Source: Puniceicoccales bacterium
Lineage (GTDB): Bacteria > Verrucomicrobiota > Verrucomicrobiia > Opitutales > JAIRLG01
Direction: 5' to 3'
DNA: 64,000 bases
Assembly: GCA_031288595.1 (NCBI GenBank)
Contig: JAITRB010000016.1
Location: 3,271-67,270, forward strand
Position numbers and translations under genes: made by a program. Shown piece by piece: positions 3,054 through 64,000 of the stretch (the first letter of the stretch is position 1; each line of letters starts with the position of its first letter). The notes under the pieces were generated by a model. It was not told where the DNA came from, ran no database searches, and saw only the letters and a program-made list of their open reading frames with translations.

Positions 3054-3149
3054 GGGGCTGGCTTTCGATTCCGGAGGAATCGGGCCCGCGAAGCGGGCCG
3101 CCCGGAGGGAAATGCCTCCGGCATTTCCTCCCGGGCAAAGCCAGCCCCA
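3054..3149. repeat. Cloverleaf-like intergenic palindromic element, copy 1
   Basis: Outer stem ggggctggcttt / aaagccagcccc encloses three hairpins: cgattcc-gga-ggaatcg; ggcccgc-gaa-gcgggcc; cccggagggaaatgcc-tcc-ggcatttcctcccggg. Lies between the divergent tRNA-Phe and glyQS. Confidence 0.8.
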
Positions 3150-3419
3150 CACCAAAAACCCAGCCTCCGAACTGAGCCTTCACCGATCGGTCCCTTTCGT
3201 GTCGATCGGTCCCCGTCTATCGACCGTCATCCGGTGCGCTGAAGCATACCCTACATGCTCTAAGGGAGGGATGACTGCGATAGCTGCGGTGAGAGGAAGC
3301 AGAGCTGGTCAAAGTGTGAAATCCCCGGCTTTTCTTTCCCCGATATTTTCCCTTGAAAGCCACCGGGGATCGACTGAATCGGAAGCGGAGCAATCGCTAA
3401 AGAACCGGTCAGAAGAGCC

Positions 3420-4922
3420 ATGTCGCATTACGAGGCCAGTATGGAGGAGATCATCCAGCTCTGCCGGCGGCGAGGGTTTCTCTTCCCGTCATCCGAAATC
3501 TACGGCGGCCTGGCCGGCTTCTTCGACTACGGGCCACTGGGCTCCCAGATGCGGAAGAACATCAAAGATCTCTGGTGGTGTTCCATGACGCAGCTGCGCC
3601 CGGACATCGTCGGCATCGATACGGCCATCATCCTGCATCCGCAGGTTTGGAAGAGCTCTGGCCATGTGGATGGGTTTTCGGATCCGATGGTGGATTGCCG
3701 GAGCTCGAAGATGCGCTACCGGGCCGACCAGCTCTTCTTCGCCCGGATTAGGGTCGATGGCGAGCAGATCGGCTACATCTCGGTGTTGGAAGAGAAGGAC
3801 ATGCAGGCCCGGGCGGAGGAGGAGGCCAAGAAACTGAAGCGCCGGCTTGCCAAACAGGGGGAATTGGAAGCTATTCGGCTCATTCCCTACAGCGAAGCCC
3901 GTGGAGAGGAATACGCGCTGATCCCCTCGCCGGCGACCGGAGAGCCGGGGAGCCTCACGGCCCCACGGGCCTTTAATCTCATGTTCCAGACCCGGGTCGG
4001 GGCATTGGAAGACACGAGTTCCGTCGCCTATCTCCGACCGGAAACGGCCCAAGGGATCTTCATCAACTTCAAAAATGTCCTGGATTCGACGCGGCTCAGG
4101 CTCCCCTTCGGCGTCGCCCAGATCGGACGTTCCTTTCGCAACGAGATCACGCCGAGGAACTTCTGCTTTCGCTCGCGGGAGTTCGAGCAGATGGAGTTGG
4201 AATTCTTCATCGATGACTCGGAGGAGTCCTGGAAGCACTGGCATGCATACTGGATCGAGGAGCGCCTGCGCTGGCACCGAGCTTTGGGGATCCGTCCGGA
4301 ATTATTGGACACTGAAATCCATCCCAGGGAAAAGTTGGCTCACTACGCCCGGGCATGTACAGATATCTGCTTCCGCTATCCCTTCGGCATTCAGGAGCTG
4401 GAGGGCATTTCCGCCCGGGGAGATTTCGATCTCCGGCAGCACCAGAAGGGCAGCCGTGTATCGCTGGAGTATTTCGATGAGGCCACCCACAGGCGCTTCC
4501 TGCCGCACGTCATCGAACCGGCCCTCGGGGTCGACCGGCTCTTCCTGGCCCTGCTCTGCTCGGCCTATGACGAGGACGAGGTGGAGGGGGAGAAACGCCA
4601 AGTCCTACGCCTGCATCCGGCCGTCGCACCCATCAAGGCCGCCGTCTTTCCATTGGTCAAAAATAAACCGGAGCTGGTCGCTATGGCCGAAGGGCTTTTT
4701 CAAAGCCTGCGGAGGAAATGGCCGGTGACTTACGATGCTTCCGGGGCCATCGGGCGCCGCTACCGCCGGATGGACGAGGTCGGGACACCCTTCGGCATCA
4801 CCGTGGACTTTCGTTCGTTGGAGGACATGACTTTCACTCTGCGGGAGCGCGACAGTACTCGCCAGGCCCGTCTCTTGGAGGCCGAGCTCATCGCCACCAT
4901 CGACGCTAGGCTGGAACTTTAG
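3420..4922 (+). CDS. glyQS: Glycine--tRNA ligase (dimeric GlyQS type)
   Basis: 500 aa. N-terminal RRGFLFPSSEIYGG..G..DYGPLG is typical of class II GlyRS. Motif 2 region is AQIGRSFRNEITPRNFCFRSREFEQMELEFF. There is a C-terminal anticodon-binding domain (IKAAVFPL...RRYRRMDEVGTPFGITVD). Confidence 0.92.
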   Translation: MSHYEASMEEIIQLCRRRGFLFPSSEIYGGLAGFFDYGPLGSQMRKNIKDLWWCSMTQLRPDIVGIDTAIILHPQVWKSSGHVDGFSDPMVDCRSSKMRYRADQLFFARIRVDGEQIGYISVLEEKDMQARAEEEAKKLKRRLAKQGELEAIRLIPYSEARGEEYALIPSPATGEPGSLTAPRAFNLMFQTRVGALEDTSSVAYLRPETAQGIFINFKNVLDSTRLRLPFGVAQIGRSFRNEITPRNFCFRSREFEQMELEFFIDDSEESWKHWHAYWIEERLRWHRALGIRPELLDTEIHPREKLAHYARACTDICFRYPFGIQELEGISARGDFDLRQHQKGSRVSLEYFDEATHRRFLPHVIEPALGVDRLFLALLCSAYDEDEVEGEKRQVLRLHPAVAPIKAAVFPLVKNKPELVAMAEGLFQSLRRKWPVTYDASGAIGRRYRRMDEVGTPFGITVDFRSLEDMTFTLRERDSTRQARLLEAELIATIDARLEL

Positions 4923-5002
4923 GGCTCATCCGCTGGCCTCGGGTTAGAGCTGCGCTTGAGGGGCGTTTGGGAAAATTTCGAGTCCCTTGGTCTCCTGATT
5001 TG

Positions 5003-5102
5003 TTTCCTGCCGGCTTTACCGGGAAGCCAGGATGGGAATCCTGGCTTCCCGGAGGCCCGCTGCGCGGGCCCGATGCCGAAGGCATCGAAAGCCGGCAGGA
5101 AA
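5003..5102. repeat. Cloverleaf-like intergenic palindromic element, copy 2
   Basis: Outer stem tttcctgccggcttt / aaagccggcaggaaa. Hairpins: ccgggaagccaggat-ggga-atcctggcttcccgg; ggcccgc-tgc-gcgggcc; cgatgcc-gaa-ggcatcg. Starts 81 nt downstream of the glyQS stop. Hairpin order is inverted relative to copy 1. Confidence 0.8.
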
Positions 5103-62131: not shown

Positions 62132-62195
62132 ATGAGGAAATGCAGAAGCTCCGATCCCGCGAATCAGCCCTCGGGTCATCGAAGTTCACCAGGAG

Positions 62196-62888
62196 CTAGG
62201 GGAGCAGTTGCTCTATCGCTTCCCGGGCAGCAGCCTCCTGTGCGCGTTTCTTGGATGACGAGTGAGAACGACCGTAGAGCCTGCCATTGAGCCACAGCTC
62301 GACCTCAAAGAGCTTCTGCGGGGCCGCTCCCTCTTCCCTTACCAGTCGGTACTCGATGCTCCAGGTCGGGCTCTGACTCTGGGCATACTCCTGAATCCGT
62401 CCCTTGGGATTGTAGTCCCGCATGAGCGATTCCAGATGGCTTCGGATGTCCCCTAAGCACTTCAGGATCACCCGTCTGGTCTTGGCGAATCCCGCTTCGA
62501 GAAAAATAGCCCCCACCAGAGCTTCGAGCACATCCTCCACGGCGGAAGAGGCTAGGGGCCCACCGGAGGCCGCTTCGTCGAAATGTATCCATGGGCGCAA
62601 TTCCATCTTTTCCGCCAACGCCGACAGGAATTTCCCACTGGCCAATGCGCTCCTGTAAACCGTGAGCTCTCCCTCCGCCTTGTCCGGAAAGGTCCGAAAG
62701 AGTGCCTCTGCCAGAATGGCTGACAGAACCGCATCGCCCAAAAATTCCAGGCGCTCGTAGTTCTCCGTTGCCGAAACTGACGGGTGTGTCAGTGCTTTCT
62801 GCAAAAGCTCCTCCGACCTAAGGCGATAGCCAAAGATTTTCCCCAAAGCCTTCACCGGCGGAGACTCTTCTCCAGAAAACCCGCTCAT
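62196..62888 (-). CDS. rnc: Ribonuclease III
   Basis: Has the RNase III signature NYERLEFLGDAVL, a second acidic cluster (AVEDVLEALVGAIF) and a C-terminal dsRBD (PKGRIQEYAQ.....Y.........F.V.......G.G.S.KKRAQEAAAREAI). Confidence 0.92.
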   Translation of the reverse strand: MSGFSGEESPPVKALGKIFGYRLRSEELLQKALTHPSVSATENYERLEFLGDAVLSAILAEALFRTFPDKAEGELTVYRSALASGKFLSALAEKMELRPWIHFDEAASGGPLASSAVEDVLEALVGAIFLEAGFAKTRRVILKCLGDIRSHLESLMRDYNPKGRIQEYAQSQSPTWSIEYRLVREEGAAPQKLFEVELWLNGRLYGRSHSSSKKRAQEAAAREAIEQLLP

Positions 62889-63877
62889 GAGCTTTTCGTT
62901 CCCAGGTAACTCCTGAGGGGATCCCGAATTGCCTTTCGGAAAAATCTCTCGATGCAGGACAGGCTATGCCACGGCGAGAATCCCCTCACTGGCTTCGTCC
63001 TCTTCGCCGCTTCTCGTAGGGCTTGAAACTTCTCTGCGAAGGGAGTTCGAAAGGCCGTTTGCCAGAAGAGGTGGGTCAAGTAGTAGCAATCCCAGCGCCG
63101 TGGCAGCTTTGGCCGGATGTTCTTCGGTACACGGGCCAGTTGCGCTTCCAGTTTTTCCGAAAAGGCCTTCCAGGGCTTTTGGTAGATGAAATGGACGATG
63201 CTCATCTCTTCCAAACTGCCCGAGGTCCTGTAGTCAAATCGATTCCAACGGGGCTGGAGCGGACAGAACTGCCCCTCGGCGAGGATATTCAGCGGGTCCT
63301 GTTCGGGAAAATCGAAGGGCCCCCTTGCCCGTATGAGGGCCACCAGGCGCTCCGTCAGCCCTTCGCTCCGCCATCGGATGGGCTCGATGAGCAGAACGCC
63401 CACGTTGAAGTAATCCGCATCTTGCGGCCGTCCCAGCCGGCGGTTGTGCCACCGCAGCGGACTAACGCCCCGTTCCGAGCGCGCCGCGAAGGCATGGCCT
63501 CCAAGTTCGGAATGGTAGAGTGACTCCCATTCGCCCAGCACCAATGTGTCGCTGTCCAGGTAGAGGATGCGAGGGGACTCGGGTAGGATTTCCGGAAGGA
63601 ATATCCGGGCATAAACCGCCGGACTGGGATATTTTTCCGTCACGGGCAATGAGCGAACGGCTTCCGGTAAGGAATGAAAGTGGAGCTTCAGGAAAGGGAA
63701 GTTCTTTTCCAACTGCTTCATTTTGAACTGGGAATTTTCCGAAATCGCGTCGTCCAGCACGTGCGCCTGCACTGGAACCCGGCCATGGTGATGCTCCATC
63801 AGCGACCAGAGCGCCACCGCCGTAAAGGGCACATAGGCTTCATCACAGGCAAAGGCGACGTGTAGGATCTCTTCCAT
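62885..63877 (-). CDS. Glycosyltransferase family 8 (LPS glycosyltransferase-like)
   Basis: HVAFACDEAYVPFTAVALWSL matches the GT8 N-terminus. ILYLDSDTLVL is the DxD motif and YFNVGVLLI is also present. It overlaps the rnc start by 4 nt. Confidence 0.75.
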   Translation of the reverse strand: MEEILHVAFACDEAYVPFTAVALWSLMEHHHGRVPVQAHVLDDAISENSQFKMKQLEKNFPFLKLHFHSLPEAVRSLPVTEKYPSPAVYARIFLPEILPESPRILYLDSDTLVLGEWESLYHSELGGHAFAARSERGVSPLRWHNRRLGRPQDADYFNVGVLLIEPIRWRSEGLTERLVALIRARGPFDFPEQDPLNILAEGQFCPLQPRWNRFDYRTSGSLEEMSIVHFIYQKPWKAFSEKLEAQLARVPKNIRPKLPRRWDCYYLTHLFWQTAFRTPFAEKFQALREAAKRTKPVRGFSPWHSLSCIERFFRKAIRDPLRSYLGTKSS

Positions 63878-63916
63878 GGACTAATATTTGGAGTCTTTCT
63901 GTGAATTGTGAGGGTT

Positions 63917-64000
63917 CCGCTGTCTTGGCCCCATGAAAATTTTTCTCATTTTCATGGGGATGCCCGCTGCGCGGGCGCTCCCTTTGGGAGCCAAAGATAG
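63917..64000. repeat. Cloverleaf-like intergenic palindromic element, copy 13 (truncated by window end)
   Basis: ccgctgtcttgg...ccaaagatag outer arms. Hairpins: ccccatgaaaat-ttttctc-attttcatgggg; gcccgc-tgc-gcgggc; gctccc-ttt-gggagc. It is near-identical in layout and much of its sequence to copy 11. Confidence 0.8.

Follow-up and report, generated by a model that had tools for sequence, protein, structure and literature searches.

The window analysed here is a 64,000-nucleotide stretch of a Puniceicoccales metagenome-assembled genome (MAG; Verrucomicrobiota; GenBank assembly GCA_031288595.1, contig JAITRB010000016.1, positions 3,271 to 67,270 of the forward strand). It carries 14 copies of a cloverleaf-shaped element, 80–125 bp long, in which one outer stem encloses three hairpins. 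[quoted passage not shown] Together they sum to about 1.4 kb, or 2.2% of the window, at a spacing of about 4–5 kb, and, read in the order short, central, long hairpin, they are split 7 (+) to 7 (−) despite a monotonic GC skew.

Fourteen copies in the window

A preliminary description, made from the sequence of the window, had listed 13 loci. All are real and lie where it placed them, its 'variant' at 10872 really spanning 10843–10950, and all 13 fold, as RNA and as single-stranded DNA (ssDNA), into the four-way-junction layout that it had proposed: one outer stem closing three adjacent hairpins, with a variable 0–2 unpaired bases at the junction. The ssDNA folds have z-scores of −5.8 to −13, and for no copy did any of 200 shuffles fold as well. 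A strict descriptor, which asks for a perfect outer stem of at least 6 bp and three abutting hairpins with gaps of at most 3 nt, matches 9 window loci; in 30 dinucleotide shuffles it never matched. Primary-sequence patterns gave 4 and 8 matches in the window against 0.00 expected, and a covariance model (R1) built from 35 copies recovers 13 loci there. The statement that all copies are intergenic did not hold, as a further copy lies inside cysS. The copies are listed below with their R1 scores in bits and their ssDNA z-scores.

Copy 1: 3054..3148 (+), subfamily GGCTTT/AAAGCC, where tRNA-Phe (−) and a class II aminoacyl-tRNA synthetase (aaRS) gene (+) diverge; 78.0 bits; ssDNA fold −46.3 kcal/mol, z −7.8.
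Copy 2: 5003..5102 (−), subfamily GGCTTT/AAAGCC, 81 nt past the stop codon of that aaRS gene; 77.8 bits; z −12.2; strict descriptor match.
Copy 3: 7983..8084 (−), of a divergent subfamily whose outer stem is GCGCGATGGCC, flanked by yebC and a trmA-like gene; 24.9 bits (E 0.003); z −11.9.
Copy 4 (the 'variant'): 10843..10950 (+), outer stem GCGCGACGGCC and three hairpins, 14 nt past the glgA stop codon; no R1 match at E ≤ 1; ssDNA fold −62 kcal/mol, z −11.5; missing from the orthologous region of locus L013.
Copy 5: 14848..14944 (−), subfamily GGCTTT, between an M3 peptidase gene and rplU; 80.6 bits; z −8.7.
Copy 6: 19526..19652 (+), subfamily CCGCCTTTG, central hairpin enlarged, flanked by an N_methyl protein gene and infA; 59.3 bits; z −9.9.
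Copy 7: 43303..43383 (+), embedded in the cysS coding sequence (43110–44552, − strand), encoding SPAEARAGLRGLEDIVLGALGLTLPAT, and additional to the 13; descriptor match; 38.6 bits; z −7.7.
Copy 8: 44717..44822 (+), subfamily CCGCCTTTG, with a 22-bp long hairpin, between prs and cysS; 82.5 bits; z −13.0; orthologous copies in loci L116 and L117.
Copy 9: 49413..49498 (−), subfamily GCTGTCTTTG, 47 nt past the stop of a lipid-A acyltransferase/GT9 gene; 75.8 bits; orthologs in L052 and L116, missing in L117.
Copy 10: 52172..52265 (+), own sequence, between the convergent genes gidA and bamA; 30.0 bits; z −8.2; orthologs in L116 and L037 have diverged hairpin sequences and have kept the pairing.
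Copy 11: 56233..56344 (−), subfamily CCGCCTTTG, between an H+-translocating pyrophosphatase (H+-PPase) gene and dnaB; 65.1 bits; z −6.0.
Copy 12: 58845..58933 (−), subfamily GCCGTCTTTG, where the H+-PPase gene and a histidine kinase gene diverge; 84.4 bits; z −10.8.
Copy 13: 62031..62134 (+), subfamily CCGCCTTTG, 62 nt past the rnc stop codon; 74.6 bits; z −12.4.
Copy 14: 63917..64000 (−), subfamily GCTGTCTTTG, its 3′ outer arm cut off by the window end and its long hairpin common with copy 12; 51.9 bits over model positions 5–96; z −5.8.

Restriction to one lineage

The family is restricted to a single lineage, a group of termite-gut Puniceicoccales. Scanning 185,579 species genomes with the pattern CTTTG-N12-30-GCCCGCNNNGCGGGC-N24-54-CAAAG returned at least 114 loci. 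Among the matches listed, 52 fall in three Puniceicoccales MAGs, JAITKE01, JAIRRP01 and JAITIW01 (K, R and W below), and the remaining 62 are single matches spread over many phyla. Again among the matches listed, the strict descriptor picks out 37 copies in the Puniceicoccales loci (350 kb) and none in the loci from other phyla (438 kb); because those 438 kb hold no descriptor copy, we attribute the pattern matches in other phyla to chance. R1 detects about 115 copies in the 350 kb of listed Puniceicoccales loci, and the overall nhmmer count is 126 canonical copies. Identity between the window and K is 84% over 5.4 kb; with R and W it is 65–74%. The 'Pcl387' bins (K and W) have been cited as lower-termite MAGs (10.1101/2025.08.05.668610).

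Searches of known families returned nothing for the elements. Rfam, both at the gathering threshold and at E ≤ 1 with permissive filters, reported only one tRNA, in line with the earlier remark that no Rfam family was recognised; ARAGORN likewise found only tRNA-Phe (2881–2956). Plasmid and phage collections contained no match to the elements, and we found no description in the literature of these elements or of this lineage's repeats.

A common plan carried by several sequences

Thirty-five oriented copies align well (alignment A1). The outer stem, 7–22 bp long, has a conserved inner part of 8–10 bp (GCTGTCTTTG, GCCGCCTTTG or GCTGGCTTT, with their complements), as in the outer inverted repeat GCTGTCTTTG...CAAAGACAGC. 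Also conserved are the short hairpin, which consists of G-N-N-C/T-C-C, a 3-nt loop and the complement, and the central hairpin, (G)GCCCGC-NNN-GCGGGC(C), plus a 0–2-nt spacer. The long hairpin evolves fast; it carries a GC clamp, its 5′ arm is rich in purines, and the stretch close to its loop is rich in A/T. No conserved loop, junction nucleotide or unpaired motif is present in A1.

Within the window, the central stem GGCCCGC-NNN-GCGGGCC occurs at four sites with the loops GAA, TGC, GCA and TGT, as first reported, and the shorter GCCCGC-NNN-GCGGGC at nine sites in all, each within an element. An uptake-sequence-like motif was rejected as an explanation, the core 9-mers and the central palindrome being essentially confined to the elements. 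The reported occurrence of the hairpin order in both orientations simply reflects copies on either strand. Two statements about the long hairpins had to be revised: they are not always perfectly self-complementary, with mismatches in the copies at 3054, 14848, 52172 and 56233, and they are not all unrelated, since those at 58845 and 63917 have CCCCATGAAAAT in common and one long hairpin is common to many copies in the related genomes.

The number of hairpins is fixed. In 414 kb, outer stems of at least 7 bp enclose three hairpins in 45 cases, two in a single case that is an artefact, and four in none. With this nested palindrome architecture, a four-way junction can therefore be folded from either DNA strand.

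The copies form subfamilies whose members hold outer-stem and hairpin sequences in common, and the same plan recurs with sequences of its own. One such group has the outer stem GCGCGAYGGCC (window 7983 and 10843; L010 798). The outer stem of copy 3 recurs at L010 798–887, for which orthology with window 7983 is ruled out by different flanking genes. There are also singletons with their own sequence, for example 52172, L029 7673 and L032 3509. A second family of five copies, GGGGCCCCGGGAC GCTCGCTTCGCGAGC AAGCGGCTTTGGCCGCTT A AGCCCTCTTCGAGGGCT GTCCCGGGGCCCC, is seen only in K, at the following positions.

L042: 1144–1218 and 3586–3662
L100: 4454–4530
L057: 2102–2169 and 3067–3145

Separately, two canonical copies (L088 1590–1755 and L050 357–497) have one hairpin with either a loop of about 50 nt that is unstructured or an expansion, which may be a scar of insertion or deletion at a hairpin tip.

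Signs of multiplication and mobility

First, copies within a genome can be nearly identical. The 47 copies in R have a median pairwise identity of 0.80, with 35% of pairs at 85% or above and a maximum of 0.99, which looks like a recent burst. Median identity falls to 0.68 in W and 0.64 in K, and to 0.58 among the 10 window copies compared, none of whose pairs reaches 85%. Hence the R lineage carries the family as a conventional high-identity repeat and the window genome as an old, diverged one; the earlier view of structure conserved beyond sequence is right for the window genome and overstated as a general one.

Second, copies differ in presence between related loci. R has an extra canonical copy between gidA and bamA; the copies at 49413 and 52172 are missing in W without trace; and one R copy is missing in W although it adjoins an unrelated 150-bp MITE that both genomes have.

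Third, copies are found beside and within one another. Among the 126 copies there are 14 adjacent doublets, none of them in the window, with orientations +− (5), −+ (4), ++ (3) and −− (2) and gaps of 7–176 nt. In two nested insertions (L106 2078–2340 and L032 98–302), a whole copy of one subfamily occupies the apex of another subfamily member's long hairpin, and both composites fold as predicted (z −14.8 and −13.7). Uninterrupted paralogues of the two 'outer' elements, which would define the empty site, were not found.

The flanks carry no target-site duplication, the lengths of flanking direct repeats being those of shuffled flank pairs; a shortage of A in the left flank and of T in the right carries a weak palindromy on beyond the element. 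A search of the related loci for split element arms enclosing a gene, a possible transposase carrier, gave only noise.

R and W also contain another, unrelated repeat, MITE-like and about 150 bp long, which has the terminal inverted repeats CTAGAGGGTGTCGTCAAAA...TTTTGACGACATCCTCTAG and often flanks cloverleaf copies; one copy of it is orthologous between R and W. Its positions are as follows.

L047: 1190–1340 and 1520–1660
L060: 7030–7180
L086: 3140–3290
L049: 7230–7380

Comparison with known repeats

REP and REPIN elements are thought to act as folded ssDNA, and in these systems a single-copy gene for a REP-associated tyrosine transposase (RAYT, of the Y1 type) is flanked by repeats. The elements described here resemble REP, BIME and REPIN repeats in being high-copy, GC-rich extragenic palindromes, single or clustered in either orientation, with no target-site duplication. 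They share vertical persistence at orthologous loci with these repeats, which are vertically inherited (10.1101/2021.07.10.451892; PMC3116915). Unlike REP, an imperfect hairpin of 20–40 nt, each is a nested palindrome of 80–125 bp and lacks a conserved unpaired tetranucleotide of the GTAG type; unlike REPIN, in which two inverted REPs form one long hairpin, each has three separate hairpins within an outer stem. BIMEs are clusters with alternating orientation and defined linkers; the doublets here are of mixed orientation, with gaps of 7–176 nt. No RAYT was found in 471 kb of genome fragments, and the host belongs to the Verrucomicrobiota, not the Proteobacteria.

In architecture, bcr1, a repeat confined to the Bacillus cereus group, comes closest among those that we found described: about 150 bp long, it is predicted to adopt a 'cruciform-like' structure of a closing stem with two internal stem-loops, shows compensatory changes and has flanking 5-bp direct repeats (PMC3184786). 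It is said to be maintained at the RNA level. A closing stem around independent internal stem-loops, kept by compensatory change, is common to both. The present elements differ in having three hairpins, not two, no flanking direct repeats, no sign of action at the RNA level, an unrelated sequence and a Puniceicoccales host. We found no described architecture with a perfect four-way junction and exactly three hairpins.

As in MITEs of DDE insertion-sequence origin (such as Correia/CREE, ERIC and RUP), the elements are small, non-autonomous and intergenic, with terminal inverted repeats (here the outer stem), subfamilies, bursts and insertion into one another. Unlike them, they show no target-site duplication and no parent insertion sequence in the loci examined; their interior consists entirely of three abutting palindromes, and conservation of the old copies exceeds that of neutral sequence.

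Integron attC sites are recognised as folded ssDNA. Conservation of structure over sequence and outer inverted repeats around a variable structure recall attC, but there is no integrase, cassette array or R/L box, and the flanks are syntenic housekeeping and type III secretion system (T3SS) genes. The Rickettsia palindromic element (RPE) is likewise a palindromic repeat of a host-associated bacterium that also occurs within a protein-coding gene; it is an in-frame insertion that adds a peptide, whereas the cysS copy adds no residues. Retron non-coding RNAs, with an a1/a2 stem and msr/msd hairpins, adjoin a reverse transcriptase gene and are single-copy; here there are 14 copies in 64 kb, with no reverse transcriptase among the flanking open reading frames (ORFs) scanned against Pfam. 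Intrinsic terminators, which are GC-rich hairpins at 3′ ends, differ from the elements in having a U-tract and a gene-aligned orientation, and divergent regions are occupied by the elements at chance frequency; tRNAs and tRNA-like structures are set apart by the lack of a match from ARAGORN or the Rfam tRNA models. The elements thus stand apart from every named family because, in each case, at least one tested defining feature fails. Of the four roles offered in the preliminary description, the REP/MITE-like element fits best.

Constraint on orthologous copies

Pairing is preserved through sequence change, as had been proposed. In A1, 94.3% of cells on the structure line are paired (a figure inflated by how the copies were picked), both sides change in 26 of 35 pairs, and none of 500 shuffles equals that; sliding the pairing partners by an offset lowers pairing to 37–49%.

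The same constraint is seen at fixed sites, where orthologous copies span 3–4 genomes. Four copies common to the window and L116, a K contig, are 88%, 91%, 90% and 100% identical, against 72–75% in the indel-rich flanking intergenic DNA and 74–78% at third codon positions. Ten orthologous comparisons comprise 411 pairs, of which 341 are unchanged, 12 compensated, 14 involve G.T and 20 are broken, with only 63% identity at unpaired positions. Individual cases include a compensatory G-C to A-T change in copy 9 relative to its orthologs in L052 and L116, and, in the long hairpin of copy 8, a matching 3-nt deletion in both arms together with several paired substitutions. The prs/cysS copies and a second locus (L025/L081/L090) are kept in three genomes with unalignable flanks.

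Such constraint raises the possibility, which we consider somewhat unlikely, that the copies are domesticated DNA structural sites: four-way junctions or cruciforms that a host protein such as gyrase, a nucleoid protein or a junction-binding protein binds or processes, with selection keeping the shape and mobility merely supplying new sites. Binding of this kind has been proposed for REP and BIME. Orthologous copies persist between genomes that are about 65–84% identical in coding DNA and whose flanks are randomised; the elements are 88–100% identical where third codon positions are at about 75%; stems are conserved and loops are free to vary; the constraint is equal on both strands; the three-hairpin plan recurs in subfamilies with little or no common sequence; and the copy in cysS, within the longest identity run of that gene, has no synonymous change over 27 codons. 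However, copies have vanished from a sister lineage and left no trace, the burst seen in R, with its near-identical copies, resembles selfish spread, hairpin-templated correction could mimic part of the signal, and no binding protein or phenotype is known.

No preference for strand or position

On the balance of evidence, the constraint is symmetric and acts at the level of DNA rather than on an oriented RNA. Canonical copies lie between co-directional genes in 51 cases, divergent genes in 19 and convergent genes in 18, which does not depart from the 43/24/21 expected by intergenic base pairs (p = 0.24) or the 51/18/19 expected from a count of gaps that are 60 nt or longer (p = 0.94). The co-directional copies are oriented sense in 25 cases and antisense in 26, and are nearer the upstream stop in 22 cases and nearer the downstream start in 29 (p = 0.16). 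The transcribed strand and its complement differ in folding energy by a mean of −0.07 kcal/mol (Wilcoxon p = 0.84) and contain 39 and 43 G.U pairs, respectively, with no asymmetry of G.U against A.C. No T-run lies 3′ of the structure. A terminator or 3′-end role was rejected because it has no orientation, position or G.U signal.

A cis-acting structured RNA, whether an orientation-independent terminator, a 3′-end stabiliser or a processing signal between transcription units, is quite unlikely. In its favour, RNA folds are highly stable and changes compensatory, a 20-kb stretch scanned contained no convincing canonical hairpin-plus-U terminator, and 9 window copies lie 14–106 nt past a stop codon. 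The last observation agrees with the preliminary count of nine or ten copies at 20–110 nt; across the 126 copies, however, placement is that of random intergenic DNA, and the 51 tandem cases show no bias towards the upstream stop. The even orientation, the lack of a G.U excess over A.C on the transcribed strand, the chance-level occupancy of divergent promoter regions, the lack of a U-tract, conserved loop or junction nucleotide or Rfam match, and a copy within coding sequence all count against an RNA function. The tRNA-like, structured-RNA and 3′-end-stabiliser roles proposed earlier are thus unsupported by the 25:26 orientation, the G.U counts, the chance placement and the missing T-run.

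A copy in native coding sequence

The copy within cysS (43303–43383) occupies a segment that aligns without length change to 12 CysS homologues, with SPAEARAGLRGLEDIVLGALGLTLPAT colinear, and its 'short hairpin' GAGCCCTTGGGCTC encodes the conserved GALGL motif. An RPE-like insertion is ruled out by this colinearity, and blastn-short found no donor copy for the segment. The W ortholog encodes a homologous peptide and has no structure (−25 versus −77 kcal/mol). Between the window and K, all 81 of 81 nucleotides of the copy are identical, within an identity run of 89 nt that is the longest in the gene (the next is 38 nt; the gene overall is 86% identical), and the 27 codons show zero synonymous change. 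With the segment native and colinear and no donor found, coding sequence was therefore remodelled into the shape of the family and then frozen.

That all cloverleaves arise in place, built or maintained without transposition by a mutational process such as template switching that perfects near-palindromes, would fit the cysS copy and its unstructured W ortholog, the matching indels and substitutions of the two arms and the several copies with their own sequence (52172, L029 7673 and L032 3509), but is highly improbable: it leaves unexplained the near-identical copies at unrelated loci, the subfamilies, nested insertions, presence/absence differences and exactly three hairpins, and unbiased correction should not push substitution below the neutral rate.

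A model for the family

We return to the reading as interspersed palindromic DNA repeats. The comparisons show that the family multiplies within genomes and gives rise to subfamilies, inserting without target-site duplication and, in the two nested cases, at the tip of the long hairpin of another copy. Copies settle anywhere in intergenic DNA in either orientation, and a fixed copy can persist at its locus over deep divergence, its stems changing more slowly than neutral in a compensated and symmetric way. Under this reading, what matters would be the fold of the DNA, either as a single-stranded cloverleaf or as a cruciform that is extruded, rather than a strand-specific RNA. To spread, copies would presumably need a structure-recognising enzyme acting in trans, most likely an HUH/Y1-type or other hairpin-targeting transposase, and retention could reflect host selection for the DNA structure or hairpin-templated correction.

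Several points weigh against this reading. The cysS copy arose in native coding sequence without insertion, and no hypothesis fully explains it. Change below the neutral level at fixed sites is unexpected for purely selfish DNA. Both observations point to a host-level or mutational process that mobility does not explain. A tblastn search with E. coli RayT for a transposase or RAYT gave nothing below E = 1 in the 471 kb of genome fragments, and the loci examined, also genome fragments, contain no full-length parent element. A clean filled/empty orthologous pair between R and W could not be aligned, the boundaries being too diverged to place the exact ends of the insertion or its target site. 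The copies used for covariation were picked by a descriptor that itself requires pairing, and genes in the related loci are crude longest-ORF calls, so that the context statistics are approximate.

A more specific idea, which we put forward as doubtful, is that the recognised unit is the shape itself, a DNA four-way junction with exactly three arms in a closing stem, and that a structure-specific enzyme or host factor acts on it, so that subfamilies unrelated in sequence, and even the remodelled stretch of cysS, are kept as members. If true, this would be a new folded-DNA/protein partnership in the Verrucomicrobiota, akin to that of REPIN or attC, whose insertions are directed to the tips of hairpins.

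Most of what is known of interspersed palindromic repeats comes from Proteobacteria and Firmicutes, and the family would extend their range to host-associated Verrucomicrobiota. It joins marks of mobile DNA (bursts and nested insertions) with marks of constraint: copies stay at one locus over deep divergence, one is built into a coding sequence, and stems change about one-third as fast as neutral sites. It is therefore a test case for the question of whether repeats of this kind are parasitic, have been domesticated as structural DNA, or both. At about 2% of sequence, the elements probably fragment short-read assemblies of these MAGs and yield spurious ORF calls.

Genomic context and further observations

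The window has a G+C content of 52–62% and a cumulative GC skew that climbs steadily. Its housekeeping genes include aaRS genes, yidC, glgA, mnmE, gidA, bamA, dnaB, the H+-PPase gene, rnc, prs, fabF, rplU and infA. T3SS genes, namely an SseC-like gene, genes for tetratricopeptide repeat (TPR) chaperones, sctV (40548–42674) and CesT, are dispersed among them at 22620–24283, 39425–43030 and 49621–50121. This dispersal resembles that in chlamydiae and suggests association with a eukaryotic host; the closest relatives of this verrucomicrobial MAG are termite-gut MAGs. Adjoining the T3SS genes is a single ORF of 5034 amino acids (24297–39401, − strand), which is followed downstream by the genes of an SseC-like translocator and a TPR chaperone, while orf372, sctV and a gene for a TPR protein lie upstream; it is syntenic in W (L117) and may encode a giant secreted effector.

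About 1.47 kb downstream of rplU–rpmA, at 15678–17144, there is no convincing ORF, and neither Pfam (ORF 16436–16759) nor Rfam gives a match; the region could be a pseudogene remnant or a non-coding region of unknown kind. A gap of 483 nt separates orf114 from the trmA-like gene and holds a strong simple hairpin at 6365–6420 (about −26 kcal/mol in 50 nt), which is not a cloverleaf; R1 weakly matches both strands there, at 6378–6403.

Finally, long ORFs cross elements at 7899–8234 (−), 19525–19959 (−), the 5′ part of 56450–59068 (−) and 5032–5200 (+). These are either spurious ORFs or over-extended 5′ ends; the GC-rich palindromes have no stop codons and could mislead gene callers.

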